Source of the DNA: Bacteroidota bacterium
GTDB taxonomy: Bacteria > Bacteroidota > Bacteroidia > Flavobacteriales > Flavobacteriaceae
Assembly (NCBI GenBank): GCA_043728355.1
Contig: JAYTMQ010000055.1
Location: 16,937 to 80,936 of the forward strand
Length of the DNA stretch: 64,000 nucleotides
Direction of reading: 5' to 3'
The translations under genes were made by a program, and so were the position numbers. Of the stretch, positions 26,179 to 59,920 are shown one piece after another. The stretch's first letter is position 1; every line of letters begins with the position of its first letter. The notes under the pieces are model-generated. The model searched no databases. It saw nothing but the letters and a program-made list of their open reading frames with translations, and was not told the origin of the DNA.

Positions 26179-27318
26179 TTATAGGATTTTATTTGACCAA
26201 AGGCGCTCTAAAAAAATTTTCCATGGCAATACGGTTACATTTCCTATAATTCTTTCAAGAGGATCGTTGCTTACAATTATTAATTTTTTTACTGAATATT
26301 CTTCTGCAAAACTTTTTAATCCTTTTAAATGTCTTGATTGAACATTATTAGTTGCTTTAATTTCGAGAGCAACTTCGTGGTCGCCTAAAATAAAATCGAC
26401 TTCAATTTGTGAGGTTGTTCGCCAATACGAAATTGCATATTCTTGCCCAGAATAATTACTGTGAGCATACAATTCTTGATAAATAAAATGTTCGAAAGCA
26501 TTTCCAAATGCTTCACTTCCAAATTCTATTTTTCCTCTTTTTAACAAATAATTTGCAATTCCGACATCAAAATAATAAAATTTTGGGGCAACAATAACTT
26601 TTCGTTTTGGTTTCTTTTGAAACGAAGGTACAAATCTACCAATTAATGTGTCCTCTAAAATCTGAAAATAATCTTTAATCGTAGTTGCGCTAACGCCACA
26701 ATCAGATGCAACGTTGGTGTAATTAACCATTTCGCCATTCGAAAAAGCGGCGGCATCTAAAAATTTAGTAAAAGCATTTATATTCCTGATTTTGGCTTCT
26801 GCAATAATTTCGTCTCTCAAATAATTGCCAATATAAGCTGAAATTAATTTTTTTGGATTTTCTGATAAATAATGTCTTGGCAACAAACCATTATTCAAAG
26901 CTTTTAACAAATCGAAATCTGGAATTTCTGATTGAATTAGCGGATACAATTCATAGCGAAGTGCACGACCACCAAGCAAGTTTGTTCCTGATCTAATAAT
27001 TTTTCTTGGACTTGAACCACTCAGTATAAAACGGTTTTTATTATTAACAATCAACCAATGAATTTCATCTAACAATGATGGAATTTTTTGTATTTCGTCG
27101 ACAATAACAACAGTTTCTTGAGCGATTGCTAAAACGGCTTCTCTAAATTGATGCGGATTTTTTTGATAACGTTCAAAAACATCAGACTTTAATAAATCAA
27201 AAAACAAAGCATTTGGAAAAAGTTCTTTTAACAATGTACTTTTTCCAGTTTGCCGAGCTCCCCATAAAAAAAGACTTTCATTTCCTGAATCTATTAATAT
27301 TTGTTTTCTATTAAACAT
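26179..27318 (-). CDS. AAA_14-type ATPase with wHTH and DUF4143 (PD-(D/E)xK-like) C-terminus; ATPase-1
   Basis: Walker A GARQTGKS, Walker B VIVDEIQ, SGSS, HTH NYTNVASDCGVSATTIKDY, KFYYFDVG, EVDF...ALEIK. Confidence 0.88.
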   Translation of the reverse strand: MFNRKQILIDSGNESLFLWGARQTGKSTLLKELFPNALFFDLLKSDVFERYQKNPHQFREAVLAIAQETVVIVDEIQKIPSLLDEIHWLIVNNKNRFILSGSSPRKIIRSGTNLLGGRALRYELYPLIQSEIPDFDLLKALNNGLLPRHYLSENPKKLISAYIGNYLRDEIIAEAKIRNINAFTKFLDAAAFSNGEMVNYTNVASDCGVSATTIKDYFQILEDTLIGRFVPSFQKKPKRKVIVAPKFYYFDVGIANYLLKRGKIEFGSEAFGNAFEHFIYQELYAHSNYSGQEYAISYWRTTSQIEVDFILGDHEVALEIKATNNVQSRHLKGLKSFAEEYSVKKLIIVSNDPLERIIGNVTVLPWKIFLERLWSNKIL

Positions 27319-27382
27319 TTTTAAATAAATTATTATAAATCAATACTTTATGAATTTTAAAAATATAAAAATTCAAACTTGT

Positions 27383-27475
27383 ACTTGAGATTTTAATGTT
27401 AATTGAAAGTATAACTTGAGATTATAATAAAATTACAAAGTACTACTTGACATTATTATAAAATTATACAAGTAC
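27383..27475. repeat. Three degenerate tandem repeats, 31-bp period, upstream of ATPase-1
   Basis: ACTTGA recurs at 27383, 27414 and 27445. Units: ACTTGAGATTTTAATGTTAATTGAAAGT, ACTTGAGATTATAATAAAATTACAAAGT, ACTTGACATTATTATAAAATTATACAAGT. Confidence 0.8.
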
Positions 27476-27482
27476 AAATATA
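27475..27482 (-). promoter_or_regulatory. -7 element (TATATTTG) for ATPase-1, abutting the repeat array
   Basis: caaatata on the + strand is TAnnTTTG on the - strand. Confidence 0.5.
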
Positions 27483-27511
27483 TTAAAAATTAATAAAAAT
27501 AATCTAAATAA

Positions 27512-28057
27512 TTATCTAAAAATTGTTTTAAAAATTATTTTTAAATCTAGCAGTAAAGATTGATTGTAATAATATTCCAAGTTCATTTTTACTTTATCGG
27601 GAAAAATAATAGTATCGTTATATTGCAATTGATTTTGTTGATGAGACAAAATTTCGTCTTCATTTGCATATTTAATCGATGCCAATGAGGTTAAACCAGG
27701 TTTTAGATTTAGTATTTTTTTATTTTCGCCTTCTAGTTTATCATAATAACCAGCAATGTCTGGTCTTGGCCCAACAAAACTCATATCGCCAACTAGAATA
27801 TTTACAAACTGTGGCAACTCGTCAATTTTGTTTTTTCTGATAAACTTTCCGAATTTAGAAATAAAATCAGAATTGTTTTGAATGGATTTTAACTTAAAAA
27901 TTTTAAATTTTTTCCCAAATTGTCCAATTCTTTCTTGGTTAAAAAGTCCATTTGATTTGGTATCAATTGAGGCTACTATCCAAAATAAAAAAATAAATAT
28001 TCCCAAAAAAAGTAAAGCTAAAATAGAAAAAGAAAGGTCAAAAAGTCGTTTTGTCAT
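27512..28057 (-). CDS. Monotopic phosphoglycosyl transferase (bacterial sugar transferase, PglC-like)
   Basis: KRLFD, QERIG, KIDELPQFVNILVGDMSFVGPRP, KPGLT. Confidence 0.9.
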   Translation of the reverse strand: MTKRLFDLSFSILALLFLGIFIFLFWIVASIDTKSNGLFNQERIGQFGKKFKIFKLKSIQNNSDFISKFGKFIRKNKIDELPQFVNILVGDMSFVGPRPDIAGYYDKLEGENKKILNLKPGLTSLASIKYANEDEILSHQQNQLQYNDTIIFPDKVKMNLEYYYNQSLLLDLKIIFKTIFR

Positions 28058-28076
28058 TATTAGAATTTCAATTTAT

Positions 28077-28718
28077 TTATGAAATAAAAATCAGAATTTC
28101 ATAAAGATTAGCTATTGTATTGTTTGGTAAATATAACAATTCTAAATCAAAATTTTGTTGATGAATATTTCGCCCATTGTCTAACAAACAAATTGTTTGC
28201 CAACCCAATCGATTTGGAGCAACAAAATCTTTGTGAGTATTATCAGCAATATAAAAATATTTTTGTGTTTGAAACTGATGAAAAATTTCAAAATTATTTA
28301 AATTTGGTTTTTCTGAACCAAACTCTTCTGAAATGATTATCAAATCGAATAAATTTTCGATATCTAAAGCTTTCAATTTGTTGCGTTGTGTTACAGAAAA
28401 TCCATCGGAAATAAGTCCTAATTTATAACCTTTTTGTTTTAAATCAATCAGCAACTGTCGATTTTTGGATTTTGAATCAAAATTCGGAAAATGATTTCTG
28501 TAAATATTTTTCAAATCTTGAATTGCAAAATTAGAATATTTTATTTGAATTTTTTCGAAAACATTTTGTTTGCCACAATACCAATCTAACATTTGATTGT
28601 AAAGATTTGAATTATTTGAATCTACAAAATTTGCTATTTCTTGAAAAGCCGATTTCAAAAAATCTATTTCTTTGACAATTGTATCATCTAAATCAAAAAC
28701 AATAGTGCAATCATTCAT
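28077..28718 (-). CDS. HAD-family hydrolase
   Basis: VFDLDDT, ISDG, EKP, IADN..KDF..PN..GW. Confidence 0.88.
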   Translation of the reverse strand: MNDCTIVFDLDDTIVKEIDFLKSAFQEIANFVDSNNSNLYNQMLDWYCGKQNVFEKIQIKYSNFAIQDLKNIYRNHFPNFDSKSKNRQLLIDLKQKGYKLGLISDGFSVTQRNKLKALDIENLFDLIIISEEFGSEKPNLNNFEIFHQFQTQKYFYIADNTHKDFVAPNRLGWQTICLLDNGRNIHQQNFDLELLYLPNNTIANLYEILIFIS

Positions 28719-28721
28719 TGT

Positions 28722-29690
28722 TTATAGTTTAAAATTGCGAACCAAAACTTCGTCATCATAGCGCAACATCATTAAGTTTTTCTCCCAGTCTTGAAAAATT
28801 TCAATTGGTTGATTTAGCAAATATTCTTCAATAATCCATTTTACAAAATTGGCTCCAGCCAAATAACTCAACGGAAATCCACCGCCAAATCTAGGATTTA
28901 TTTCTATTCCATAAATATTATTTGTATTGTTGTTTACAAAAATTTGCAAAGTAATACACCCTCTAAATCCTGCTACAAATTGTAATTTATTCCAGATTTC
29001 ATCGTTAAATTTTTCTAATTTTGTGATGGCTTTATTAACTTCTCCATCACGAATTTCGAGTCTTTGCCTTGGCACCAAACATTTCAACTTGCTGTTTTTG
29101 TCATAATACATATCGATTGTAAATTCGGTGTGTTTAGAATGATCTAGATATTCAAGAAACATTAATTTTTCGTTTTCTAAATGATAATCAGTTAATTGCT
29201 CATTTTTAAAAATCGTGTAATTATCAACACTTCTACTGCCGTCAATTGGTTTTATGTAAATTGGAAATTCGTAATTGGTTTTATCAAATTCTTTGGCACA
29301 ATTAATATTGTATTTCTCAAAAAAATCGTGTGTTAATCGTTTATTTCTGAAAACTTCTATGGTTTCAAAATCAGAAATTACTACTTCTATATTGTTATTT
29401 TTAAATAATTGAATATTTTTAGACAAAACCAAAAGCTCTGTATCGATTGTCGGAATTAGGATTTTAATTTTGTTTTCAATACAAATTTCTATTAAACTTA
29501 GAACATAATTAGCATCCGTAACGCGGCAAATGCTAAAAAAACCATCAGAAATATTGCATGCCGAAGATAATTCTGGATTAAAATCGGTTGTAAAAACTTT
29601 TGCATCAATAAAAATTTTCTTCAATTCTATTTTGAAAAATTTGATTAAAGAAACGCGCCTTCCTGCCGATGTTATTAGGATGTTATTCAT
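28722..29690 (-). CDS. ATP-grasp domain protein (carbamoyl-phosphate-synthase-like, polysaccharide-associated)
   Basis: ILITSAGRR, LIPTIDTEL, IKPIDGSRS, EYL..EFTID, EINPRFGGG, MMLRYD. Confidence 0.85.
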   Translation of the reverse strand: MNNILITSAGRRVSLIKFFKIELKKIFIDAKVFTTDFNPELSSACNISDGFFSICRVTDANYVLSLIEICIENKIKILIPTIDTELLVLSKNIQLFKNNNIEVVISDFETIEVFRNKRLTHDFFEKYNINCAKEFDKTNYEFPIYIKPIDGSRSVDNYTIFKNEQLTDYHLENEKLMFLEYLDHSKHTEFTIDMYYDKNSKLKCLVPRQRLEIRDGEVNKAITKLEKFNDEIWNKLQFVAGFRGCITLQIFVNNNTNNIYGIEINPRFGGGFPLSYLAGANFVKWIIEEYLLNQPIEIFQDWEKNLMMLRYDDEVLVRNFKL

Positions 29691-29724
29691 TTTTTTTATT
29701 TATTCTATTTCTAATTTTTATTTA

Positions 29725-30327
29725 TTAAGACTCATCAAATCTGGGCATTGTAGAATGTCCATCAGCAGAAATTTCAGAAGTTTTGAATAATTTCAAGACG
29801 GTTAAAAAAAATATTTTGATGTCTAAAAGAAAATTTATGTTTTGTACATACCAAACATCAAGTTCGAATTTTTGATTCCAATCTATCGTATTTCTTCCAT
29901 TTACTTGTGCCCAACCAGTTATGCCTGGTTTAACATCGTGTCTTTTTAATTGAATTTCTGTATAAAAATCTAGGTAAGAAACCAATAATGGTCGTGGTCC
30001 AATAAGACTCATATCGCCAATAATTACATTCAAAAGTTGCGGAATTTCATCAAGCGATGTTTTGCGAACAAATTTTCCGATTTTGGTTAACCTGATTTCA
30101 TCAGGTAATAAATTGCTGTTTGCATCTTTTTTATCATTCATAGTTTTGAACTTAATTATTTTAAAAATTTTGCCGTTCAAACCAGGTCGATACTGAAAAA
30201 AATATGGTTTTCCATTATTTGCAAAACTTAATAATATTGTTACCAATACAAAAATCGGCAACAATATTATTATTGCAGTTAACGAAAATAAAAAATCTAA
30301 AATTGGTTTTATTAATGATTTGTACAT
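29725..30327 (-). CDS. Monotopic phosphoglycosyl transferase (PglC/EpsL-like)
   Basis: QYRPG, KFKTM, RLTKIG, SLDEIPQL, GPRPLL, KPGITGWAQVNGRN. Confidence 0.92.
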   Translation of the reverse strand: MYKSLIKPILDFLFSLTAIIILLPIFVLVTILLSFANNGKPYFFQYRPGLNGKIFKIIKFKTMNDKKDANSNLLPDEIRLTKIGKFVRKTSLDEIPQLLNVIIGDMSLIGPRPLLVSYLDFYTEIQLKRHDVKPGITGWAQVNGRNTIDWNQKFELDVWYVQNINFLLDIKIFFLTVLKLFKTSEISADGHSTMPRFDES

Positions 30328-30330
30328 TTT

Positions 30331-31452
30331 TCAAAAAATAAAATCTAAATAATTGTCTTTATGAATGACTTGAAATTTAGAATTTGGATAGTTATCTAAA
30401 AAAGCTTTGGGCGTTTTTACTTTAGCATTTGGATTCCATTTGAATTCAAATGTAGTAATTTGCTCATTTTCCTCCTCGATATAATCAATTTCTTTTTGTT
30501 CTTTGGTTCTCCAAAACCAAAAATTGCAATATTTAGCATTATAATTCAGGTATTTCATTCTTTCGGATATCAAAAAATTTTCCCATAAAGCACCGATGTC
30601 TGTTCTATTTTCTATTTGATTAAAACTAGATATTAATGCATTACGAATTCCGTTGTCGTAAAAATATATTTTTTTACTGTTTTTAAGTTCGTTTCTCATA
30701 TTTCTGCTCAACGAACTTAATTTAAAAACTACAAATGTTTGTTCTAGAACCGTTATATATTTTTCGACTGTTTTAGAATCTAGACCACACAAATTACCCA
30801 ACTCATTATAAGATACTTGCGAGCCAACTTGAAAAGCCAATGCTTGCAATAATTTGACCAATTTTTCGGGCTTTTTTATCTGCTCAAGCATTAAGACATC
30901 TTTATATAGGTAACTATCAGATAGCAATTTAAGGATTTCTTTTTCTGAACCTTGATTATTGATTACATCAGGATAGTAACCATAAATCAATCGATGCGGC
31001 AAAAGTCGTTGCTCTTCTAACAAACCATGATGATTGACCATTTCGGCAAACGAAATCGGAAACATTTTGTATTCCCATTTTCGACCAGTTAGAGGTTCAT
31101 TTAAACTATTTGCCAATTCAAATGCAGAACTTCCAGTTGCAATTAACTGAACTTCTGGTATAGAATCTGTAATTAATTTCAACCTCAAACCAATGTTTTG
31201 TATTCTTTGTGCTTCGTCAATAATGATAATTTTTTTTTGACCTATTATTGCTTTGAATCTATCGGCAGAGATTGTTGCAAATAGGTTTTGAATATCAATT
31301 TCGTCACCATTCATCCAAAGAATATCTTCTTTATTAGCAAACAAACTGTTGAGCAAAGTTGTCTTGCCAACTTGTCTGGATCCTAACAAAATGATAGCTT
31401 TTTTCTTGAAAAGTTTAAGTTTTAAAGTTTTTTCTAATATTCGATTTACCAT
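30331..31452 (-). CDS. AAA_14-type ATPase with wHTH and DUF4143 C-terminus; ATPase-2
   Basis: GSRQVGKT, IIIDEAQ, TGSS, LTGR, GYYP, HTH SYNELGNLCGLDSKTVEKY, KIYFYDNG, EIDY...FEFKW. Confidence 0.88.
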   Translation of the reverse strand: MVNRILEKTLKLKLFKKKAIILLGSRQVGKTTLLNSLFANKEDILWMNGDEIDIQNLFATISADRFKAIIGQKKIIIIDEAQRIQNIGLRLKLITDSIPEVQLIATGSSAFELANSLNEPLTGRKWEYKMFPISFAEMVNHHGLLEEQRLLPHRLIYGYYPDVINNQGSEKEILKLLSDSYLYKDVLMLEQIKKPEKLVKLLQALAFQVGSQVSYNELGNLCGLDSKTVEKYITVLEQTFVVFKLSSLSRNMRNELKNSKKIYFYDNGIRNALISSFNQIENRTDIGALWENFLISERMKYLNYNAKYCNFWFWRTKEQKEIDYIEEENEQITTFEFKWNPNAKVKTPKAFLDNYPNSKFQVIHKDNYLDFIF

Positions 31453-31470
31453 AATTCAACGTTTATTGTA

Positions 31471-31478
31471 CAAATATA
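31471..31478 (-). promoter_or_regulatory. -7 element (TATATTTG) for ATPase-2
   Basis: TAnnTTTG 18 bp upstream of the ATG, immediately next to the repeat array. Confidence 0.6.
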
Positions 31479-31479
31479 T

Positions 31480-31602
31480 AACTTTTTTGGATTTGATTCC
31501 CTAAAAGTAGCAACTTTTTTGGATTTGATTCCCTAAAAGTTGTAACTTTTTTGGATTTGATTCCTTAAAAGTAGCAACTTTTTTGGATTTGATTCCGTAA
31601 AA
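31480..31602. repeat. About 3.8 near-perfect 32-bp tandem repeats (AACTTTTTTGGATTTGATTCCCTAAAAGTAGC) upstream of ATPase-2
   Basis: Units start at 31480, 31512, 31544 and 31576 (partial), differ at 1-2 positions, and have no spacers. Confidence 0.95.
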
Positions 31603-31608
31603 TCAAAC

Positions 31609-32751
31609 TTAAAGCTTATAATATTCTTCTAATAAAGCATTCCAAACCAAACTTTGTTCGAATCGTTGAAGAACATTTTCTTTAGAATTAGAAGACAACT
31701 TCAATACTAACTCTTTGTCGTTTAAAAACAATTGCATTGCTTCATAAAGAGCAGATTCATTTTGAGATTCAATAATAATTCCATTAAAATCGTCTTGAAT
31801 GATTTCATTACAACCATTAATATTGGTCACAATACTTGGCAAATTCATTGCACCAGCTTGTAACACTACATTAGGAAAACCTTCGCGATAACTTGGAAAA
31901 ACGAGCGCATTTGCAACAGCAAAATAAGGACGAACATCGTCTTGAAAACCAACAGAAATTATTGACTGATTTTTATTTAAAATTTCATAAGTTTCTGGAA
32001 GTAATGGATCTAAATCATTTTCGAAATTGCCAACTAAAAGCAATTTAGTGTTTGAATTTTCTTTTTTTAAATTATCAAAAGCTTTTACTAACTCATTGAT
32101 TCCTTTATCTGTAACTAATCGTCCAACGTAAATAAAAACAAAATCATTTTCAGAAATATTGAGATTTTGTTTTAGCATATTTTTATCAATTTCAGAAAAC
32201 AAATCAGGATTAAAATAATTTAAATCGATTCCGTTAATGTTTCCATTGGCAATAATTTTAAGTGGTTTGCTGGTGATTTTGAAATTGATTAAATCATTTT
32301 TCACACCATTTCCTTCGGGGAAAATATGTGTTGCGAATCGGCATAGAAGTCTGTCCATAAAAATAAAAAAACTTTTAGAAAAACCAGTTTTAGTTTGAAA
32401 AATCAAACCAGTAAAAGTGTGGATTCTAATTGGAACTCGAGCAAAAAATCCAGCAATCATTGACAATAAACCAGCTTTAGGAGTAATAGAATGAATAATA
32501 TATGGTTTTTCTGTTTTAAGAATTTTATATAATTTAAATAAAGAAATTAAATCTTGAATTGGATTAATATGTCTTTTAAAAGCTATATCAATTGTTTTTA
32601 CTTTTTCACGACTAAACACTTTATCCAAATGACTGTCTTGACCAGAAACGGCAATAACTTCGAAATTTTTATTCAAAAAAGCCAATTGACCTTTGAGCAA
32701 AATATCTAAAGACGAAGAAACAGTAGCGGTTCTGATTAGTTTTTTTTTCAA
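31609..32751 (-). CDS. Glycosyltransferase family 4 (CapM/PglA-like)
   Basis: HSITPKAGL, HTFTG, GRLVTDKG, FPSYREGFPNVVLQA. Confidence 0.9.
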   Translation of the reverse strand: MKKKLIRTATVSSSLDILLKGQLAFLNKNFEVIAVSGQDSHLDKVFSREKVKTIDIAFKRHINPIQDLISLFKLYKILKTEKPYIIHSITPKAGLLSMIAGFFARVPIRIHTFTGLIFQTKTGFSKSFFIFMDRLLCRFATHIFPEGNGVKNDLINFKITSKPLKIIANGNINGIDLNYFNPDLFSEIDKNMLKQNLNISENDFVFIYVGRLVTDKGINELVKAFDNLKKENSNTKLLLVGNFENDLDPLLPETYEILNKNQSIISVGFQDDVRPYFAVANALVFPSYREGFPNVVLQAGAMNLPSIVTNINGCNEIIQDDFNGIIIESQNESALYEAMQLFLNDKELVLKLSSNSKENVLQRFEQSLVWNALLEEYYKL

Positions 32752-32754
32752 TTT

Positions 32755-33876
32755 TTATTTTTGTTTATTAAACAAATCTATGTAATAATTTTGTAACCAT
32801 TTGCCATTTTCAATTACATTAAAACCAGCATTTGCAATAATTTTATCTGTAACATTTTTTTGATGTGGAAATTTATTCAAAATAAATTCAGCCCAGTATT
32901 TTGCAGATTTTTCGAGATTTAAAAACGAAACTAATCCTGGAACAATTGCAACTTCTAACGGCACACCTGTTGATGTAATGCATTTTAATCCAGCAGCTTG
33001 AGCCTCGATTAATGATACTGGCAAACCCTCATAATGAGATGGAAAAATAAAAAAATCCATAGCTTGCAAAATATCATTTACATCATTTCGTAAACCTAGA
33101 AAAACAACCTTATCTGTTAGATTAAAATCTTTGATTTTTTGTTCAATATGATGTTTTAATTCGCCCTCACCTACTAAAAAAAGTTTGCAATTTGAATTAA
33201 TTAATAAAATTTCTTTGAAAATTTCAATTAAAAAAAAATGATTTTTTGATGCCGAAAACCTACCAACATTTATAAAATTAATTGTGTTTTGACAAGATAA
33301 TTCAACTCGTTTTTGAGAGTCTAATTGTTCATCAAATTTAAATTTATTCGAATCTATTGCGTTATTCAAAACTATAAAATTAGTATTTTTTCCAAACATC
33401 CATTCGCCTGCAGATTGGCTACAACCTATAAAATTTGTAGCAATTTTTGCAAATTTTAATTTTAAAAAATTGCCAACTAATACTTTTATAGAAAATTCAT
33501 TAACCATCGAAACATGACTATGAATAATTCTAATTGGAATATTGGCTTTTTTAGATGCTTTTATAGGGAAATACCCAAAAGCATTATTATGTACATGAAC
33601 AATTTTATGATAATTATGGTTTAGAAAAAACCTTTTTAATGAACGATTGTATGCAAAAAAACCATTGATTGTTAGTGGTAAAACACGATAAATTTTTCCG
33701 CCTAGTTCTAAAATTTCTTTTTCAAAATGACCTTCTTCAGAACGATGTACTAGAAAGTCAAATTGAACTTTACTTCTATCAATATTTCTATAATAATTCA
33801 TTAACATAGTTTCTAATCCACCTATATTCATCGAGGTTACTATTTGAAGAATTCGAATTGGTTGATTTTGCATCAT
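32755..33876 (-). CDS. Glycosyltransferase family 4 (EpsF-like)
   Basis: GGLETMLMNYYR, IHSH, GRF...KN, FPSHYEGLPVSLIEAQA. Confidence 0.9.
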   Translation of the reverse strand: MMQNQPIRILQIVTSMNIGGLETMLMNYYRNIDRSKVQFDFLVHRSEEGHFEKEILELGGKIYRVLPLTINGFFAYNRSLKRFFLNHNYHKIVHVHNNAFGYFPIKASKKANIPIRIIHSHVSMVNEFSIKVLVGNFLKLKFAKIATNFIGCSQSAGEWMFGKNTNFIVLNNAIDSNKFKFDEQLDSQKRVELSCQNTINFINVGRFSASKNHFFLIEIFKEILLINSNCKLFLVGEGELKHHIEQKIKDFNLTDKVVFLGLRNDVNDILQAMDFFIFPSHYEGLPVSLIEAQAAGLKCITSTGVPLEVAIVPGLVSFLNLEKSAKYWAEFILNKFPHQKNVTDKIIANAGFNVIENGKWLQNYYIDLFNKQK

Positions 33877-34598
33877 TTTATTTTTTTAGTAAAATTTGTA
33901 TAATTTTCAGATCCGATAATCGGAACGAGCAATTTTAATCTAAAAAATCTAATGATTTTAGTTTTGAAAGAAATCCAAGACAAACTATGGTGGTGTATTG
34001 CGTAGGTATTATTTGTAATATTATATTTCCCTGAAACGAGACTTCGAGCATGAAAAAAATCGTCTTGATAAACAAAAATACCATCTGATAATTCTTGATT
34101 TTTATTGATTAATTCGAAACCAAATTTTATCAATACATCTTGCATCCAATAATTATTTGTCACATTATTTATAGTACCATTTTTTTTAATAAATTCCATT
34201 TTATCATAAACTTCTAAAAGTTCCGAAAAATACTTACTTTCCTTTTTAGCAGCCATAAATGCTGTTAAAAACCCATTTTCATCAGTGCCAAGAACCACAT
34301 TTTTTTCGAGTATTTCGTCAAGATTTTTAACAATTTCTATATCGATATCAAGATAAATTCCGCCATATTTTTTAAGAATATAAACTCTTGCATAATCAGA
34401 TACAAATGCAAATTTATTAAGTTGATAAGCTTGTTTAGAAAAAGCTGAAACATTTATATCAAAATTATTTTCGTTCCAAAACTTTATTTCATATTCTGGC
34501 AAAACCTTTTTCCAACTGGCAATACACTGTTTAGCTATTTTGGGCATTTCGCCGTCTCCAAACCAACAATAATGAATTATTTTTGGAATCATTGACAA
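33873..34598 (-). CDS. DXD-motif glycosyltransferase (GT32/OCH1-like)
   Basis: IPKIIHYCWFG, AFVSDYAR, GGIYLDID, YAIHH...W. Confidence 0.9.
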   Translation of the reverse strand: MSMIPKIIHYCWFGDGEMPKIAKQCIASWKKVLPEYEIKFWNENNFDINVSAFSKQAYQLNKFAFVSDYARVYILKKYGGIYLDIDIEIVKNLDEILEKNVVLGTDENGFLTAFMAAKKESKYFSELLEVYDKMEFIKKNGTINNVTNNYWMQDVLIKFGFELINKNQELSDGIFVYQDDFFHARSLVSGKYNITNNTYAIHHHSLSWISFKTKIIRFFRLKLLVPIIGSENYTNFTKKIK

Positions 34599-35704: not shown

Positions 35705-35722
35705 TGAATAGTATTTATTTAA

Positions 35723-36604: not shown

Positions 36605-36607
36605 GAT

Positions 36608-37702: not shown

Positions 37703-37784
37703 TTATTTTTTGTTTAATAATTCTAAAATTATTATAATTTTCAAAAATAAACAATAATATTATCTATTATCACAAATTTTAAAA

Positions 37785-40545: not shown

Positions 40546-40554
40546 TTGGGTTGA

Positions 40555-44769: not shown

Positions 44770-44787
44770 AATTAAATCTCTGAAAAC

Positions 44788-45834: not shown

Positions 45835-45844
45835 TTTTAAATTT

Positions 45845-47122: not shown

Positions 47123-47131
47123 TCGATAAAA

Positions 47132-48523: not shown

Positions 48524-48574
48524 CTTTTTATTTAAATTCTTTTTTGCAAAAGTGCAAATATTTTATTAAAAACA

Positions 48575-49558: not shown

Positions 49559-49561
49559 TTT

Positions 49562-52024: not shown

Positions 52025-52036
52025 TTTCGAGTTATA

Positions 52037-52822
52037 TTATTTTTTTAGAAGTAAAAATGTTGTCGTGATTAGTGACAAAACAGTAATTATTGTTGTAAGT
52101 GATTCAATTCCGGTTTTGCCTGTTCCCCAAGTTTTTTGTTTGAGTGGTTTTACATAAATATAATCATTGGGCTGCAAATAATAATATGGAGATTTTGTAG
52201 CATTTATATCTGTTAAATCAATAGAATGAATTTCTGTACCTTGAGGAAATTGTCTAATTATTTGAACATCTTTTCTATTACCAGTTATAGTTATATCGCC
52301 AGAATTGGCGATTGCTTCTAGCAAATTTACTTTTTCTTGATATAAAGTTTTTGTTCCTGTCGCTCCAACTTCTCCGTTTATTGTATAGCGAAAACCCGCT
52401 AATTTTACATTTACAAAAAGGTTAGATTCTTTATTGAAATATTCTTTAAGTAATTTTTCTTCAATTTTTAAACGTATTTCATCGGCAGTAAATCCTAAAA
52501 CATTCATTTCGCCCAAAACAGGAATTCTAATATTGCCGTGGTCATCTATCGTAAAACCATCATAATACAAACCTTGTTCAGAATTTTGAGCAACTCCACC
52601 ATTAGAAATTGCAAAAATCTGACTTAATTTTGGATCCAAAGTCTTTATCGAAATGCTCAAAACATCATTAGTTTGCATTCGATATGGTTTTATGTTTACC
52701 AAATTAACATTTGAGCTTGTATCAGAATTGTTTTTATTTTGCAAATATATCAAGTCTTTGGTAGGCACACAAGATGACAATAATATCGCAAATAATAAAA
52801 AGTATATAGAAAGTTTGTTCAT
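52037..52822 (-). CDS. wza: Second polysaccharide export lipoprotein
   Basis: Lipobox LSSC, GNIRIPVLG, LLEAIANSGD, PNDYIYVKP. Confidence 0.9.
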   Translation of the reverse strand: MNKLSIYFLLFAILLSSCVPTKDLIYLQNKNNSDTSSNVNLVNIKPYRMQTNDVLSISIKTLDPKLSQIFAISNGGVAQNSEQGLYYDGFTIDDHGNIRIPVLGEMNVLGFTADEIRLKIEEKLLKEYFNKESNLFVNVKLAGFRYTINGEVGATGTKTLYQEKVNLLEAIANSGDITITGNRKDVQIIRQFPQGTEIHSIDLTDINATKSPYYYLQPNDYIYVKPLKQKTWGTGKTGIESLTTIITVLSLITTTFLLLKK

Positions 52823-52843
52823 CTCTAGTTATATTTTAGCAAA

Positions 52844-52851
52844 CAAATATA
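52844..52851 (-). promoter_or_regulatory. -7 element (TATATTTG) at the head of the capsule operon
   Basis: TAnnTTTG 21 bp upstream of the wza ATG. Confidence 0.55.
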
Positions 52852-52894
52852 GGTTTTTCATTTATATTTTAAAACTTATGAAAAAATTTAATAT

Positions 52895-53515
52895 TTAATT
52901 GTTATTAAATGCATTTTCGAAAGGAACTCTATGCAAAATACTTCGTCCTAGCGTTATTTCATCAGCATATTCTAATTCGTCTCCAACAGAAATTCCTCGA
53001 GCAATTGTCGAAGTTATAATATTGCAATCTTGAATTTGTTTGTAAATGTAAAAATTGGTCGTATCGCCTTCCATTGTTGAGCTCAGGGCAAATATTAATT
53101 CTCGTACATTGCCTAATTTTATTTTATCAACCAACGAAATAATTTTTAACTGACTTGGTCCAACGCCATCAATCGGAGAAATTTTGCCACCCAAAACGTG
53201 ATAAATTCCTCGGAATTGTCCAGTATTTTCAATTGCCATGACATCGCGTATATCTTCTACAACACATATTAATTGATGATCTCGTTTAATATTTGAGCAA
53301 ATTTCGCAAATTTCTACATCAGAAATGTTGTGACAACTCTCGCAAAACTTGACATCTTCTCGCATATTTATTAAAGCCTGACTCAAAAAAACGGTTTGTT
53401 CTTTGGGCTGTTTTAGTAAATGCAAAACTAATCTCAATGCTGTTCGTTTGCCAATTCCAGGCAATTGAGACATTTCATTTACAGCTTTTTCTAATAATTT
53501 AGATGAAAATTCCAT
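52895..53515 (-). CDS. recR: Recombination mediator RecR
   Basis: [14 protein letters not shown]......C.IC zinc finger, Toprim VVED, EGDTT, EYAD. Confidence 0.97.
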
Positions 53516-53693
53516 TTTGCAAAAGTAATTAAAAAGTTTTAAGTAGAAAGATGGATGATGGAAGTTTAAAATTTTTTCAAAATTGTTTTATCTTGTTTCC
53601 TCTTGATTCAATCTTCCTGATTTAATTTTTTTTAACTTAAAACTTCAATCTCCAAACTTTTTTCTATTTTAGCATTCTATTAAAAACAAAAAA

Positions 53694-55226
53694 ATGACTC
53701 CATTTGCAATTCTTTTATTAATTACTATTTATTTCGGATTACTTTTTATGATTTCTTATGTTGTAAGTGGAAAAGATTCTGGTAACGAAGCCTTTTTTAA
53801 AGCCAATAAAAATTCAAAATGGTATTTGGTTGCTTTCGGAATGATTGGAACGGCGCTATCAGGTGTGACTTTTATTTCAGTTCCTGGCGAAGTTGGAAAT
53901 CCTGAAACACAATTCAAATATTTTCAATTTGTAATCGGAAATGCTATTGGATTCATTGTTATTGCAACTGTTCTATTACCGTTGTATTATCGAATGAATT
54001 TAACTTCGATATACAGTTATATTGAGCAAAGATTAGGTACAATTAGTTATAAAACTGCTGCCACAATTTTCTTGATTAGTCGAACAATTGGTTCATCATT
54101 TAGATTGTATTTGGTTGTAATAGTTTTACAACGCTATGTTTTTGATTTTTATAATATTCCGTTTGCATTAACCGTTTTTGCATCGTTGGCATTAATTTTT
54201 GCATATACTTATCGAGGTGGATTAAAAACCATTATTATCACTGATACTTTACAGACATTTTTCTTAGTTACATCCGTTTTTATGACTATTTATTTTATTT
54301 GCAACAGCTTGAATCTAAATGTTATTGATGCATTTGAAACGGTTAAAAACAGCAATTATTCCAAAATATTTTTCTTTGAAGATTATTTAAAAGGAACCTA
54401 TTTTTGGAAACAAATTCTTGGTGGAATGTTCGTAACTATAGCAATGGTAGGACTAGATCAAGATTTAATGCAGAAAAACCTATCTTGCAAAAACATTGGC
54501 GAAGCACAAAAAAATATGTTCACATTTACAGGGATTTTCATTATTATTAATATTTTCTTTTTAAGCGTTGGCGCACTCCTTTATATATACGCCGAAAAAA
54601 ACAACATTTCAATTCCATTAGATTTAGTAACTGGCAAACCAAGAACCGATTTATTATTTCCTGAAATCGCATTCAATCATTTGACATTAATACCAGCGGT
54701 TGTGTTTCTTTTAGGATTAACCGCAGCGACATTTGCCACAACCGATTCGGCTTTGACAGCCTTAACAACCTCTTTTTGTGTAGATTTTCTTGGAATGGAT
54801 AAAAAAGAAAACAATTTCAATGACAATATCAATGACAATTTCAATATCCAAAAAAAAATGGTTCGAACCAGACATTTTGTTCATATTGCATTTTCAGCAC
54901 TTATGTTTTTAGTAATAATTATATTCAATGCTATAAATGATGCATCTGTGGTAAGTATGATTTTCAAGATTGCTTCCTATACTTATGGACCACTGCTAGG
55001 ACTTTACGCTTTTGGATTATTTATGAAAAAACTAACTGTACACGATAAGTTTGTGCCAGTTGTTTGTATTATTTCTCCAGCAATTTGTTTTTTAATTAGC
55101 AAAAATGCTGCGCTAATTTTTGGCGATTATGTTCTTGATGCGGAGTTGATAATAATAAATGGAATAATTACTTTTTTAGGATTGTTGATAATCAGCAAAA
55201 AAGCTGAAAATCAAACCAAATTTTAA
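53694..55226 (+). CDS. Sodium:solute symporter (SSS) family transporter
   Basis: About 13 TMs; SGVTFISVPG, Y.YIEQR.G, GGLKTIIITD.LQ, DQDLMQK, DSAL. Confidence 0.9.
   Translation: MTPFAILLLITIYFGLLFMISYVVSGKDSGNEAFFKANKNSKWYLVAFGMIGTALSGVTFISVPGEVGNPETQFKYFQFVIGNAIGFIVIATVLLPLYYRMNLTSIYSYIEQRLGTISYKTAATIFLISRTIGSSFRLYLVVIVLQRYVFDFYNIPFALTVFASLALIFAYTYRGGLKTIIITDTLQTFFLVTSVFMTIYFICNSLNLNVIDAFETVKNSNYSKIFFFEDYLKGTYFWKQILGGMFVTIAMVGLDQDLMQKNLSCKNIGEAQKNMFTFTGIFIIINIFFLSVGALLYIYAEKNNISIPLDLVTGKPRTDLLFPEIAFNHLTLIPAVVFLLGLTAATFATTDSALTALTTSFCVDFLGMDKKENNFNDNINDNFNIQKKMVRTRHFVHIAFSALMFLVIIIFNAINDASVVSMIFKIASYTYGPLLGLYAFGLFMKKLTVHDKFVPVVCIISPAICFLISKNAALIFGDYVLDAELIIINGIITFLGLLIISKKAENQTKF
54812..54847 (+). 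repeat. Six CAATnn hexamers in frame within the SSS gene
   Basis: caattt caatga caatat caatga caattt caatat, encoding NFNDNINDNFNI. Confidence 0.8.
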
Positions 55227-55263
55227 ACCTTTCCCCAACCCTCTTCAAAGGAGACGTAGAGGA

Positions 55264-55629
55264 TTAATACTGATTCGTTGCCAATAAAACCAAAGTACAA
55301 GCAATTTCAACTTTAATTCCGTTCAACTCTAATAATTGATAAAACTCAGGATTTTCTGTTCCAGGATTAAAAATTACTCGTTTCGGCTGTGCCTCGACTA
55401 TATAATTGTAGTAATCTTTTTGACGATTAGCGTTTAAATATAATGTTACTGTATTTACTTTCGACAACGGAATTGCTTTGGTATAAATTTTAACACCTGC
55501 AACTTCGCCAGTATTTTGACCAATAGCCAAAACAGAGTGACCGTTTTCGATTAATTTAGTAATTGCTTTATACGAATATCTATCTGGTTTTGTCGATGCA
55601 CCAAGCACTAATGTCTTTTTATTTTTCAT
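55264..55629 (-). CDS. CoA-binding protein (YccU-like)
   Basis: VLGAS.KPDRYS, IFNPGTEN, ACTLV. Start taken at MKNKK. Confidence 0.88.
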   Translation of the reverse strand: MKNKKTLVLGASTKPDRYSYKAITKLIENGHSVLAIGQNTGEVAGVKIYTKAIPLSKVNTVTLYLNANRQKDYYNYIVEAQPKRVIFNPGTENPEFYQLLELNGIKVEIACTLVLLATNQY

Positions 55630-55734
55630 AACCGCAAAATTACAAAAAAATATTTGCCGCAAAGGCACAAAACCGCAAAGATTTATTGTTTAATTAAAGT
55701 TTAAAAATATAACTTTGCAGAAAAATACTTCTTA

Positions 55735-56361
55735 ATGGAAATTTTCATCTATCTCTTTTTCGCACTATTTTCGGTTTTGAACCCAATCGGAACCGTTCCA
55801 ATTTTCGTCGGATTGACCCAAGATTATAATGTAAAAGAACGCGCAAATGTTTCACTTTGGACATCAATTGACGTTTTTATTATCTTGATAGTATCGTTTT
55901 TTGTAGGCAAATATGTTTTAGATTTCTTTGGAATAACTATAAATGCCTTGAGAATTTCTGGTGGATTAATCATCGCAACATCAGGATTCACATTACTTAA
56001 CGGAAAATTCAATAAGGAGCGAGGCATCAACAAAAAAGTCGAACAAGACATTCAAGAACGCAACGACATTTCACTCACACCACTCGCCATTCCTATGTTG
56101 GCTGGACCAGGTTCTATCTCACTTTTAATTGCTTATTATCAAGAACATCACGAAACTTCACTCGAAATTTTATCGTCAACTTTGGCAATATTGGCGGTTT
56201 CAATTCTAATTTTTATCATTTTAAGAAGCGCACATTATCTAGCCAAAATTCTTGGTTCTTCAGGAATTGTTGCCATTTCAAGAATTGTTGGTTTTCTGAC
56301 CATAGCCATTGGTGTTCAATACATTATCAGTTCTGTTTTAAGTATTATTCGAGGCATCTAA
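55735..56361 (+). CDS. MarC family membrane protein
   Basis: NPIG..P.F, FFGI, ISGG, PLAIPMLAGPG, RIVG. Confidence 0.92.
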   Translation: MEIFIYLFFALFSVLNPIGTVPIFVGLTQDYNVKERANVSLWTSIDVFIILIVSFFVGKYVLDFFGITINALRISGGLIIATSGFTLLNGKFNKERGINKKVEQDIQERNDISLTPLAIPMLAGPGSISLLIAYYQEHHETSLEILSSTLAILAVSILIFIILRSAHYLAKILGSSGIVAISRIVGFLTIAIGVQYIISSVLSIIRGI

Positions 56362-56370
56362 AATATTTTT

Positions 56371-56485
56371 CAGGAGCCAATCCTGCTTTCATTCCAATCT
56401 TTTTTTCTATTTCTCAATTGCCACGCCTTTAAAGGCGTGGCAATTGAGAAATAGAAAAAAAGGATTTTCCCTTCAATCAGGGCTA
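56371..56485 (+). repeat. Flavo-1-like structured repeat variant with a 64-bp perfect central palindrome (56399-56462)
   Basis: Flanks GCTTTCATTCCAATCTTTTT and AAAAAAGGATTTTCCCTTCAATC match the element at 63373-63471 in opposite orientation. Confidence 0.75.
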
Positions 56486-56609
56486 AAAAAAATCTAGTTT
56501 CAATCGAAAATTCTCATTAATTTTTAGTAATTTTATTAAAATTTAGAATTAATAAATTTTCTAGAATTAAAATCTGTGAAATCTATGTCAAATATTAAAA
56601 TTATCTGAG

Positions 56610-58040
56610 ATGAAAATCCTCCTCACAGGCGCAAATGGATATGTTGGTCGTAGACTTCTACCCGAATTACTCGAACAAGGTCACGAAATAGTTTGTTGCG
56701 TTCGCGATCAATTGCGATTGGGTTTAGACAAACAAACATTAGCTAGAATAACCATTTGGGAAGTCGATTTCTTAAAAGATCCAACACTAGAAAATTATCC
56801 AAAAAATATTGATGTTGCTTATTTTCTAATTCATTCAATGTCAAATTCGACCAAAACATTTGATATTATGGAATCGTTAGCAGCCAATAATTTCAATGTA
56901 TATATGGATAAAATGAAAGTCAATCAAGTCATATATTTGTCTGGAATTGTCAACGACCCAAATTTGTCTAAACACATGCAATCTCGCAGTAATGTCGAAC
57001 AAATTTTATTAAAAGGCAATTACAACACAACCGTTCTTCGAGCAGGAATTATTGTTGGATCAGGAAGTTCATCATTCGAAATTATTCGAGATTTATGCGA
57101 AAAATTACCTATAATGATTACGCCTAAATGGGTTTTAACCAAGTCGCAACCCATTGCAATTCGCGACGTAATTCATTATTTAACAGGAGTTATTAATCGA
57201 GAAGATTGTTACAACCAATCGTTTGATATTGGTGGCCCAAACATAATTACCTATAAACAAATGATGCAATTATATGCCAAAACACGTGGCATAAAACTAT
57301 CAATTTTTACAATCCCAATTTTTACGCCAAAATTATCTTCTTATTGGTTGTATTTTGTTACCTCAACAAGTTACAAACTAGCAGCAAACCTAGTCGATTC
57401 TATGAAAATGGAAGTTGTTTGTGCAGATAATCGTTTACAAAAAATGTTAGAAATTCATCCAATTTCTTATGTTGATGCTATAAAACTAGCTTTCAAAAAA
57501 ATCGAACAAAACCTTGTTATTTCGAGTTGGAAAGACAGTTTGGCAAGCTCTAGGTTCAAAGAAAATTTATCGAGTTACGTTCAAGTTCCTACTTTTGGTT
57601 GTTTGAAAGATGTCAAGAAAATAAAAATATTAAATTCTGCACAAGTTCTTGATAACATTTGGTCAATTGGTGGCGAGAAAGGCTGGTATTATGCAACTTG
57701 GCTTTGGAAATTGCGTGGTTTTTTTGACAAAATTTTTGGTGGCGTCGGAATGCGTCGTGGCCGAACCAGCACAACACACCTTGATAATGGAGATGCACTT
57801 GATTTTTGGCGGGTTTTGTTGGCCAATCGTGACGAAAAACGACTTTTATTATTTGCCGAAATGCGAGTTCCAGGCGAAGCTTGGCTAGAATTTCGAATAG
57901 ATGAGAATAATTTTTTACATCAAATTGCAACTTTTCGCCCACGAGGAATTGCTGGCAGATTGTATTGGTATGCAATGGTTCCGTTTCACTTTTTTATTTT
58001 CGATGGAATGATAAAACGAATTGCTCGAAATAAAAATTGA
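56610..58040 (+). CDS. NAD(P)-binding SDR protein with C-terminal DUF2867 (YbjT-like)
   Basis: TGANGYVG, YFLIHSM, RAGIIVGSGS.SFE, QPIAIRDV, IGGEKGWY, AEMRVPGEAWLEF. Confidence 0.88.
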   Translation: MKILLTGANGYVGRRLLPELLEQGHEIVCCVRDQLRLGLDKQTLARITIWEVDFLKDPTLENYPKNIDVAYFLIHSMSNSTKTFDIMESLAANNFNVYMDKMKVNQVIYLSGIVNDPNLSKHMQSRSNVEQILLKGNYNTTVLRAGIIVGSGSSSFEIIRDLCEKLPIMITPKWVLTKSQPIAIRDVIHYLTGVINREDCYNQSFDIGGPNIITYKQMMQLYAKTRGIKLSIFTIPIFTPKLSSYWLYFVTSTSYKLAANLVDSMKMEVVCADNRLQKMLEIHPISYVDAIKLAFKKIEQNLVISSWKDSLASSRFKENLSSYVQVPTFGCLKDVKKIKILNSAQVLDNIWSIGGEKGWYYATWLWKLRGFFDKIFGGVGMRRGRTSTTHLDNGDALDFWRVLLANRDEKRLLLFAEMRVPGEAWLEFRIDENNFLHQIATFRPRGIAGRLYWYAMVPFHFFIFDGMIKRIARNKN

Positions 58041-58111
58041 ATAAATTTTTTGGTTCTTTCCTGAATATTGTTGATTTTTGAAAATCAATAATTTATAGAA
58101 ACTAAAATTTT

Positions 58112-58187
58112 TTTTGTCATTTCGACGAAGGAGAAATCTCATAACGTGAGCAAAAAATGTGATTTCTCCTTCGTCGAAATGACAAAA
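58112..58187. repeat. REP-like palindrome of the GTCATTTCGAC...GTCGAAATGAC type with 27-bp perfect arms; may terminate the SDR gene
   Basis: TTTTGTCATTTCGACGAAGGAGAAATC at 58112-58138 and its exact reverse complement at 58161-58187. Confidence 0.85.
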
Positions 58188-58258
58188 TACTAACAAATTA
58201 AAAATGTCTAAGTTATTCAGAACACAACCAATTTATCTATTCATTGCATTTATAAAAA

Positions 58259-58432
58259 AATACCTTGCTAAAAGTAGTCAAAAAACATACTTTTAGCAGG
58301 GTATTAATATTTATAAATCAAAAAAAATAAAAATTATTCCTCACTAAATTTATATAAAAAATAGTACTTTTAGCGAAGTATATAAAAATACTTTGCTAAA
58401 TCATATAAAAAAAGTATATTTGTAGTGAAGTA
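58259..58432. repeat. Three related 43-44 bp inverted repeats (TACYTYGCTAAA-N19/20-TTTAGCRARGTA) upstream of ATPase-3
   Basis: Copies at 58261-58303, 58337-58380 and 58389-58432. Confidence 0.85.
58392..58422 (+). promoter_or_regulatory. Complete Bacteroidota promoter TTTG-N19-TATATTTG for ATPase-3, embedded in the third palindrome
   Basis: TTTG at 58392-58395 and TATATTTG at 58415-58422, 19 bp apart. Confidence 0.75.
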
Positions 58433-58445
58433 TAATTTTATAAAA

Positions 58446-59864
58446 ATGGTAGCTCGAGAAAAAGAAAGAAAACAGTTTGACGATTTTGTAAAAGCCAAAG
58501 TATCAGATTTTGTTGTGGTTTATGGACGTCGTCGTGTTGGCAAAACCTATTTAATTCGAGAACATTTCAAACAACAATTTTCATTTTATACTGCAGGTTT
58601 AGCCAACTCGTCTACACAAAAACAATTGGTAAATTTTTATAGCAGTTTACAAGAATACAATACAGAAAATATTGAAATCGAAATTCCTAAAAATTGGTTC
58701 GAAGCTTTTCAATCTTTGCGTAAAATATTGACTAAAAATAAATCTAAAAAGAAAGTCATTTTTATAGATGAATTGCCTTGGTTTGACACCCAAAAATCAT
58801 CTTTTTTATCGGCAATAGAACATTTCTGGAACAGTTGGGCATCTGCCAGAAAAGATATTTTATTGATAACTTGTGGTTCGTCAGCTTCGTGGATGATTAA
58901 CAAATTGATAAACAATACAGGCGGTTTACACGATCGAGTGACTCAAAAAATGAAAATTGTTCCATTCACGCTTTCAGAATGCGAACTTTATTTAAAATGG
59001 AAAAAAATCAATTTTAGTCGCTATCAAATTGTTGAAATGTACAGTGTTTTGGGTGGAATTCCTTATTACTTAAATGGTCTTGAAAAAGGTTTAAGCGTTA
59101 GCCAAAACATCAATAAAATGTGTTTCAACGACGATGGAATGATGGTTAATGAATTCCAAAACTTATATGCATCATTATTCAAAAATTCAGAAACGCACGT
59201 CGAAATTATTACAGCATTGGCAAAAAAATCAAAAGGATTGACTCGAAATGACATTATTTCGACAGCAAAAATTCCAAATGGCGGCGGAACAACAAAAGTT
59301 TTAAACGAATTGGTCGAATGCGGATTTGCACGTCGTTATTATCAATTTGATAAAAAAAATAAAGATTGTATTTATCAATTAACCGATTTTTATTCATTGT
59401 TTTATTTGAAATTCATCAAAGACAATAAAAATGCAGTTAAAGATTTTTGGATAAATGCAATCGATAACCCAATGCGAAGAAGTTGGTCTGGATATGCTTT
59501 TGAACAAGTTTGCTTGATGCATTTGCCAGAAATTAAAACAAAATTAGGCATAAGCGGCATTATGACTTCTGAAGCTTCATGGCGCAGTTCAGATTCAGAA
59601 AACGGCGCACAAATAGATTTATTGATTGATCGTCGTGACCAAGTTATTAATTTATGTGAAATGAAATTTTCTATCAACGAATTTAAAATTGATAAAAAAT
59701 ACGAAATGGAATTGCGGAACAAAATTGGCACTTTTAGAAGCGAAACAAAAACTAGAAAAGCAGTTTTCTTGACAATGATAACCACTTTTGGAGTAAAACA
59801 GAATGAATATTATGGCGATTTGGTTCAAAATGAAATCAATATGAATGATTTATTTAAAAATTGA
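58446..59864 (+). CDS. Archaeal-ATPase-like (ATPase_2) AAA protein with wHTH and PD-(D/E)xK C-terminus; ATPase-3
   Basis: GRRRVGKT, IFIDELPW, CGS, GGIPYYL, HTH LTRNDII..AKIPNGGGTTKVLNEL, FEQVC, QIDLLID...LCEMKFS. The ATG at 58446 is preferred because the GTG at 58425 lies only 2 bp after the -7 box. Confidence 0.88.
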   Translation: MVAREKERKQFDDFVKAKVSDFVVVYGRRRVGKTYLIREHFKQQFSFYTAGLANSSTQKQLVNFYSSLQEYNTENIEIEIPKNWFEAFQSLRKILTKNKSKKKVIFIDELPWFDTQKSSFLSAIEHFWNSWASARKDILLITCGSSASWMINKLINNTGGLHDRVTQKMKIVPFTLSECELYLKWKKINFSRYQIVEMYSVLGGIPYYLNGLEKGLSVSQNINKMCFNDDGMMVNEFQNLYASLFKNSETHVEIITALAKKSKGLTRNDIISTAKIPNGGGTTKVLNELVECGFARRYYQFDKKNKDCIYQLTDFYSLFYLKFIKDNKNAVKDFWINAIDNPMRRSWSGYAFEQVCLMHLPEIKTKLGISGIMTSEASWRSSDSENGAQIDLLIDRRDQVINLCEMKFSINEFKIDKKYEMELRNKIGTFRSETKTRKAVFLTMITTFGVKQNEYYGDLVQNEINMNDLFKN

Positions 59865-59872
59865 TTTGAAAT

Positions 59873-59920
59873 TATACCTTGCTAAATGTGATAAAATATA
59901 GATACATTTAGCAAGGTATA
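59873..59920. repeat. Fourth copy of the ATPase-3 palindrome, immediately after its stop codon (17-bp perfect arms)
   Basis: TATACCTTGCTAAATGT-N14-ACATTTAGCAAGGTATA. Confidence 0.9.

Follow-up and report, generated by a model that had tools for sequence, protein, structure and literature searches.

Private, helically phased palindrome arrays accompany two families of AAA+ ATPase genes in a Flavobacteriaceae genome

Three solitary genes in a 64,000-nucleotide stretch of DNA from a member of the Flavobacteriaceae (Bacteroidota bacterium, GenBank assembly GCA_043728355.1, contig JAYTMQ010000055.1, positions 16,937 to 80,936; hereafter the window) each encode an ATPase with a putative nuclease domain, and each lies next to a set of DNA repeats. 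This raises the question of whether the repeats belong to the genes they accompany, and what a protein of this kind would do with a DNA site of its own. A first-pass annotation of the window had proposed that the three genes, here called ATPase-1, ATPase-2 and ATPase-3, share one domain architecture, that each carries an array at its own promoter, and that each protein recognizes its array to form a one-gene module. We examined these proposals in the source assembly (3.03 Mb, 30% G+C, 180 contigs, 82% complete), among DUF4143 loci sampled from the genus, order and phylum (114 non-identical homologs, approximately 60 Bacteroidota genomes) for the family of ATPase-1 and ATPase-2, and among 39 homologs, all of one class, for the family of ATPase-3. 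We found that the arrays are private, phased, specifically linked to both families and adjacent to the promoter, and that they co-vary with a pair of residues in the recognition helix of the neighboring protein.

ATPase-1 (positions 26179-27318, minus strand, 379 aa) and ATPase-2 (30331-31452, minus strand, 373 aa) both consist of an AAA_14 and a DUF4143 domain. Their Pfam scores for these two domains are 74.5 and 119.1 bits for ATPase-1, and 99.4 and 142.1 bits for ATPase-2, against cut-offs of 27 and 28.1. PADLOC assigns both to the candidate defense family PDC-S01, with E-values of 6.6e-59 (PDLC04790) and 4.3e-170 (PDLC04789), respectively. ATPase-3 (58446-59864, plus strand, 472 aa) is an ATPase_2-family AAA+ protein (Pfam, 68.8 bits; cut-off 33.2) with a winged helix-turn-helix (wHTH) and a D391...E405-x-K407 nuclease motif, and it matches PADLOC profile PDLC04984 of the family PDC-S27 over residues 1-470 with an E-value of 8.9e-203. 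In alignments of both families, the Walker A and B motifs, the wHTH segment and a D...ExK nuclease motif are conserved. Within PDC-S01, residues G24, R26, G29, K30, D79 and E80 are invariant and E291, E321 and D323 nearly so, and the ExK is present in ATPase-1 and ATPase-2 and absent from 4 of 23 aligned relatives (L012, L013, L014 and L029). The architecture proposed for the three genes, a P-loop ATPase, an HTH-like segment and a PD-(D/E)xK-like motif, was therefore borne out by Pfam, by the alignments and by AlphaFold2 models (mean predicted local distance difference test scores of 89 for ATPase-2 and 85.5 for ATPase-3). The DUF234 domain suggested for ATPase-3 was not: Pfam returned no DUF234 match in residues 231-472 at E-values up to 5. 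The D391...E405-x-K407 motif is nonetheless invariant across 10 homologs, which makes a diverged PD-(D/E)xK domain likely.

The closest folds to the AlphaFold2 models are two uncharacterized archaeal AAA+ ATPases, 2fna and 2qen, which are also the top matches of ATPase-3, followed by Orc1/Cdc6, RuvB/RFC and STAND proteins. Foldseek matches to 2qby, 1fnn and 1w5t have a probability of 1.0 and template modeling (TM) scores of only 0.29-0.36. In the model of ATPase-2, the predicted recognition helix begins D225-S-K227-T228. A complex prediction with two copies of ATPase-2 residues 160-373 scored 0.01, which is evidence neither for nor against a dimer. A profile search of solved structures returned AAA+ cores and the uncharacterized 2fna and 2qen only, with no DNA complex of the family, and NCBIfam returned nothing informative.

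The two highest Tandem Repeats Finder (TRF) scores in the window belong to the arrays that immediately precede the two DUF4143 genes, and no other array in the window scores above 63, in agreement with the claim that other window genes lack such arrays. The ATPase-2 array (31481-31604, minus strand) consists of four imperfect palindromes, each 28 bp long with a GGATT-TG-ATTCC core; they start at 31481, 31513, 31545 and 31577 and repeat with an exact period of 32 bp. TRF reports it at 31480-31602, with 3.8 copies, 93% matches and a score of 218. The proximal unit lies 2 bp from the -7 box of the gene, TATATTTG (31471-31478, minus strand), such that array and box are separated by 1-2 bp. The ATPase-1 array (27383-27477, minus strand) consists of three degenerate units of approximately 28 bp with a period of 31 bp (TRF, 3.0 copies, score 102; spacings of 31 and 31 in a repeat search). 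Here the order of array and box is reversed. The sole exact TAnnTTTG box nearby, a TATATTTG of the Bacteroidota -7 type at 27475-27482 on the minus strand, lies upstream of the array, and no exact TAnnTTTG box is found between the array and the ATG. Since the only canonical -7 box is upstream of it, the ATPase-1 array may lie in the 5' leader and be transcribed, unlike the arrays of ATPase-2 and of most relatives.

At ATPase-3, one palindrome of approximately 45 bp, built from 17-bp half-sites, occurs three times, once upstream of the gene, once at the promoter and once past the stop codon. The half-sites start at 58260, 58288, 58365, 58388, 58417, 59874 and 59903. The distal palindrome (58260-58304) comprises two 17-bp half-sites that are 94% complementary. 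The proximal half-sites occupy 58365-58381, 58388-58403 and 58417-58433 (58365-58433 overall), with the last pair over the -33/-7 region and the TATATTTG box of the gene (58415-58422) within the last half-site. The downstream palindrome (59874-59919) begins 10 bp past the stop codon, is 95% complementary, is followed by a terminator-like run of T, and has half-sites that match within 1-2 mismatches. The common 31-32 bp geometry that had been proposed for all three arrays is seen at the DUF4143 genes, but not at ATPase-3, where 28-29 bp separate the two arms of a unit, sites in the same orientation (58365 and 58417) are offset by 52 bp, and the paralogs repeat at 52-55 bp.

Each of these repeats was confined to its own locus when we searched the whole 3.03-Mb genome. 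The ATPase-2 unit occurs only as its four array copies, even when 5 mismatches in 28 positions are allowed. Likewise, the ATPase-3 half-site is found within 2 mismatches at its own locus only, and the ATPase-1 units, again within 2 mismatches, cluster nowhere else. The arrays are thus not dispersed through the genome unlinked to these ATPases. Three known classes of repeat were considered and rejected: a CRISPR-like array, since there are no unique spacers; a genome-wide repetitive extragenic palindromic (REP) element, since the arrays are private; and integron attC sites, since the repeats stand in tandem at the promoter side.

The genome encodes approximately 12 DUF4143 and 6 ATPase_2 paralogs, and nearly every full-length paralog is preceded by a different repeat set. 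Four or more copies of a G+C-containing 12-mer were present upstream of 9 of 16 paralogs, compared to 45 of 925 other genes whose upstream intergenic region is at least 120 bp. In a whole-genome TRF search (score of at least 60), 9 of the 14 arrays with a period of 31-33 bp sit 6-65 bp upstream of DUF4143 paralogs, and a tenth sits at a contig end. In the same search, three of the four arrays with a period of 52-55 bp lie upstream of ATPase_2 paralogs. An array of 33-bp period at C17:6545-6627 (2.5 copies, 90% matches) is followed by an ATG, and the contig ends about 120 bp away; the array probably belongs to another ATPase gene cut off by the assembly. A perfect array of 33-bp period at C89:11795-11868 (2.2 copies, 100% matches) has no adjacent family gene and could be a relic array or unrelated. 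The search also returned 62 arrays of 21-bp period, and several arrays of 12-14 bp upstream of unrelated genes (for example on contigs C53, C10 and C178), which form a repeat class distinct from the ATPase arrays.

The linkage extends to other genomes. At least three copies of an upstream 12-mer were found for 23 of 51 family genes and for 2 of 29 control regions of the same loci (Fisher, 3e-4), and the median best palindrome arm was 12 bp for the family compared to 7 bp for the controls (Mann-Whitney, 2e-7), although these p-values overstate the case because related genomes are not independent. The enrichment for upstream periodic repeats that the first-pass annotation had called for was thus observed in the source genome and beyond it. 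An upstream array with a period of at least 15 bp precedes 32 of the 114 DUF4143 homologs; the period is 31-33 bp in 27 of the 32 and exactly 32 bp in 21, and the array sequences are unrelated. An exact TAnnTTTG box follows the array in 23 of the 27 cases of period 31-33 bp, with the array ending a median of 13 bp before it, over the -33 region. Across six homologs with proteins 49-85% identical, the upstream alignment columns that are conserved are those of the GTGAAT half-sites and of the -7 TTTG, and a 33-bp register is maintained. Other sub-lineages, mostly from another class, have either a single long palindrome that covers promoter and start site or a set of three palindromes at 22-bp spacing. 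One locus (L111/L113, G053:C41:24857-26699) holds a tandem pair of DUF4143 genes, one of them with a 32-bp array approximately 91 bp upstream.

In the PDC-S27 sample, palindrome arms of at least 13 bp were found in 31 of 39 homologs. These palindromes are typically 45-57 bp long, their left end is most often 56-60 bp from the ATG, and their right arm includes the -7 box in many homologs. A cognate copy after the stop codon was present in 9 of 33 loci by a strict match, compared to 2.4% of mismatched pairs. At one locus (L065, G164:C1), a palindrome-bearing stretch of approximately 47 bp is identical on either side of the PDC-S27 gene and brackets it as a direct repeat.

The array sequence also co-varies with the wHTH recognition helix, as would be expected if each protein reads its own array. 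Among the 114 DUF4143 homologs, a GGA[AG]T-N2-3-A[TC]TCC core within 150 bp upstream was found for 22 of the 26 with Lys-Thr at the start of the helix and for 2 of the 88 without it (Fisher, 2e-17). With the strict GGAAT-N3-ATTCC motif the corresponding counts are 12 of 26 and 0 of 88. On the tree, at least 13 changes of state were counted, and 11 independent pairs on supported branches gave approximately 8 concordant and approximately 0.2 opposite changes (median sign-test p of 0.008). Other helix starts go with other cores: DKNT with GTGAAT...ATTCAC, and SKNT with TGAC[TG]GAAT. Two homologs, L058 and L057, have outer palindrome arms in common (CCTTGCAAA...TTTGCAAGG), and the inner GGAATTGAATTCC core is present only in L058, the one that bears the lysine (DSKT, versus DVRT in L057). 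This contrast hints at two separate recognition modules.

Taken together, these observations make it probable, in our judgment, that each gene is an accessory cassette whose protein binds its own private phased palindromes through the wHTH and represses its own promoter, which would hold the nuclease low. Two of the three, ATPase-1 and ATPase-3, are insertions that relatives lack. Such a cassette would encode a single protein that joins an AAA+ ATPase of Orc1/Cdc6- or STAND-like type to a wHTH and a PD-(D/E)xK nuclease, with the winged helix reading a palindrome private to its gene. The palindrome copies would be spaced by whole helical turns, namely 32 bp (approximately 3 turns) in the DUF4143 lineage and 52-55 bp (approximately 5 turns) in the ATPase_2 lineage. 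Because the copies are a whole number of turns apart, bound dimers would lie on one face of the DNA, where they could bind cooperatively, perhaps via the ATPase domains. Since the gene-proximal copy covers the -33/-7 core promoter, its occupancy would be expected to shut the gene off. A potentially toxic nuclease would in this way be kept low, buffered and safe after horizontal transfer, and co-evolving specificity would prevent cross-talk among paralogs. Binding, the dimeric or oligomeric state, repression and an anti-phage role are all things that we infer from sequence and models. Privacy, enrichment, geometry and co-variation all favor the proposal that each protein recognizes its own array as part of a one-gene module, and such a module could act as an autoregulated defense nuclease, a titration switch or a selfish unit.

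Several points weigh against autorepression as we have described it. Simple promoter occlusion does not fit ATPase-1, given that its array lies downstream of the sole canonical -7 box, and autoregulation alone leaves the downstream copies of the PDC-S27 palindrome unexplained. The geometry of the arrays would also allow activation or a structural role, such that repression is only one possible outcome. The rule that links Lys-Thr to GGAAT was formed after approximately half of the sequences had been viewed, and the relaxed motif after all of them had been; on the 59 loci fetched after the rule was formed, the strict motif gave counts of only 3 of 13 and 0 of 46. Finally, the tree from which the independent pairs were drawn was a FastTree tree that included the wHTH columns.

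Three other explanations were weighed, and we rank an assembly platform ahead of mobility sites, and these ahead of non-cognate or RNA roles. The first treats the array as a working platform: the AAA+ protein would build up on its phased sites as Orc1/Cdc6 does at origin boxes, and once foreign DNA or a phage cue released or titrated it, the gene would be derepressed and the nuclease freed or activated. The Orc1/Cdc6- and STAND-like fold speaks for such a platform, three or four phased sites exceed the needs of simple autorepression, and the period is strictly conserved across unrelated sequences. The outer arms and the inner core of the unit vary separately between L058 and L057, a hint of bipartite contacts of the kind that Orc1 makes with its origin boxes. 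However, many homologs, including the Bacteroidia-type L032-L058, have a single promoter palindrome and no array, so an oligomer platform is not universal. We therefore regard this explanation as unlikely. A related idea, to which we give similarly little weight, is that an immune sensor anchors itself to the array while at rest: an inactive oligomer would sit on its own promoter until a phage cue or competing DNA released it, which would derepress the gene and arm the nuclease, while helix and array would co-evolve against cross-talk among paralogs. If true, this would explain why 12 and 6 copies are kept in one genome.

A second explanation is that repeats and palindromes alike mark the ends of a selfish single-gene cassette as sites of mobility or recombination, and that the nuclease cuts or pairs them. 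In its favor, ATPase-1 and ATPase-3 are insertions that relatives lack, at gene junctions that are otherwise conserved. At least 10 of 29 congeners have homologs of an aminotransferase and a small sugar-transferase gene side by side, separated by -4 to 132 bp, while in the window the ATPase-1 gene and its array (1,366 bp) lie between them. Likewise, in at least 9 congeners a gap of 40-100 bp separates the genes that flank ATPase-3 here, and 0 of 29 have an ATPase-3 homolog at that place. The lineage-specific expansion is also strong, with approximately 12 PDC-S01 and 6 PDC-S27 genes in this genome; most sampled congeners have 0 or 1 DUF4143 gene, and a PDC-S27 relative was present in none of those sampled. 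Moreover, the PDC-S27 palindrome is often on both sides of its gene, as in the window, in the 9 strict matches and in the 47-bp identical copy of L065. However, the DUF4143 arrays are one-sided and tied to the -7 box, and homologs with 78-85% identical proteins keep the gene, the array and the upstream neighbor in place. Most PDC-S27 loci lack the downstream copy, which is present in about a quarter to 40% of them. At ATPase-3, the inserted stretch reaches 218 bp and 365 bp past the outer palindromes and holds further hairpin repeats, so the outer palindromes are not its ends. No target-site duplication was seen, including at the ATPase-1 insertion, in what was not a systematic search. We consider this explanation very unlikely.

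Two hairpin features lie near ATPase-3. A long hairpin with 31-bp arms that are 97% complementary occupies 58112-58187; it is a dispersed REP-like element with approximately 7 loci in the genome (13 arm matches). Downstream of the gene, 60010-60210 contains four GTCCC-N4-GGGAC hairpins in two inverted pairs, which are 4 of only 7 in the genome.

The least probable explanation is that the adjacent protein does not read the repeats at all. They would then be sites for a different regulator, slippage-derived UP or curvature elements of the promoter, or leader RNA hairpins. In favor of this, repeats arise easily in AT-rich intergenic DNA, the -7 box and the ATG enclose the ATPase-1 array as well as many single palindromes, which would hence be transcribed, and the downstream ATPase-3 palindrome resembles an intrinsic terminator. 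Against it, the sequence differs at every paralog, so that no single shared regulator can read them all, and 27 of 32 arrays keep to a period of 31-33 bp. In addition, the core motif follows a pair of residues in the recognition helix of the adjacent protein, and the array lies upstream of the -7 box, and hence outside the gene's own transcript, in 23 of 27 cases.

The genomic surroundings of the two DUF4143 genes bear on what their promoters might do beyond the cassette. By Pfam, the window is mostly a polysaccharide biosynthesis region on the minus strand, and ATPase-1 and ATPase-2 are wedged among sugar-transferase, ATP-grasp, HAD, glycosyltransferase and aminotransferase genes. ATPase-1 ends 33 bp (26146-26178) and ATPase-2 ends 3 bp (30328-30330) before the next polysaccharide gene, with no terminator in either gap. 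Given that the genes are co-oriented within the capsule operon and no terminator intervenes, the private promoters may also drive the downstream glycan genes.

PDC-S01 (PF13173 plus PF13635; COG1373), an ATPase fused to a PD-(D/E)xK domain, is reported to be the fourth most common prokaryotic defense candidate and not to have been validated experimentally (PMC12988326; PMC3424549), and PDC-S27 is also very common (PMC12988326). ATPase-1 and ATPase-2 fit the profile hidden Markov models of PDC-S01 and its AAA_14 plus DUF4143 architecture. ATPase-3 matches PDC-S27 (PF01637, usually with PF03008; COG1672) over its full length, but Pfam does not detect DUF234 in it. Published descriptions of PDC-S01 cover the protein only, and the literature searched mentions no cognate cis-acting repeat array or autoregulation. 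In the same literature, we found no description of arrays of DUF4143, AAA_14, COG1373, DUF234, PDC-S01 or PDC-S27, nor of the promoter-spanning and downstream palindromes of PDC-S27; the main text of the preprint from which the PDC families derive (10.1101/2024.01.29.577857) does not name PDC-S01 or PDC-S27.

Neither family is known to have a characterized mechanism or an experimental entry point, and a conserved cis partner would make of each a testable protein-DNA module. The elements of that partner would be private palindromes that sit in fixed helical phase at the promoter of the gene itself and a candidate rule of residue-to-base recognition, and it would open the way to binding assays, specificity swaps, reporter assays and structures on defined DNA. 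At the level of the genome, arrays with a 31-33 bp period flag these genes with high specificity. Cloning the genes without their arrays, as is usual in defense screens, may misregulate a nuclease.

Among known systems, Orc1/Cdc6 proteins (for example PDB 2qby) resemble the proteins described here in having an AAA+ domain followed by a winged helix, and in having repeated, partly palindromic sites beside their own gene. Foldseek places DNA-bound Orc1/Cdc6 structures near the top of its matches, with low TM scores (0.3-0.35) that point to a shared architecture only, and the C-terminal nuclease domain belongs to the genes described here. These also lack an origin context, with 12 and 6 paralogs in one genome, ATPase-1 and ATPase-2 inside a polysaccharide operon, and ATPase-1 and ATPase-3 present as insertions.

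The iterons of theta plasmids and their Rep proteins (pPS10 RepA, R6K pi and P1 RepA) offer a second comparison. Iterons are tandem, phased, replicon-private direct repeats located next to the gene for their own binding protein, and an inverted copy at the promoter mediates autorepression. Rep proteins are of the WH1-WH2 type, and the iteron period is approximately 22 bp. Here, too, phased direct repeats stand next to the gene of the putative binder. However, the proteins are AAA+ ATPase-nucleases encoded at chromosomal operon positions, and nothing suggests a replicon.

The C proteins and C-boxes of restriction-modification systems offer a third. There, a separate small HTH regulator acts at two promoter sites and keeps expression of the nuclease gene safe after transfer. 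The likeness is a small palindromic operator set at the promoter of a nuclease gene; the difference is that regulator, motor and nuclease are here one polypeptide, with up to four phased sites. Set beside these three systems, the proteins encoded by ATPase-1, ATPase-2 and ATPase-3 are members not of the Rep, C-protein or Orc1/Cdc6 families, but of known, uncharacterized candidate families.

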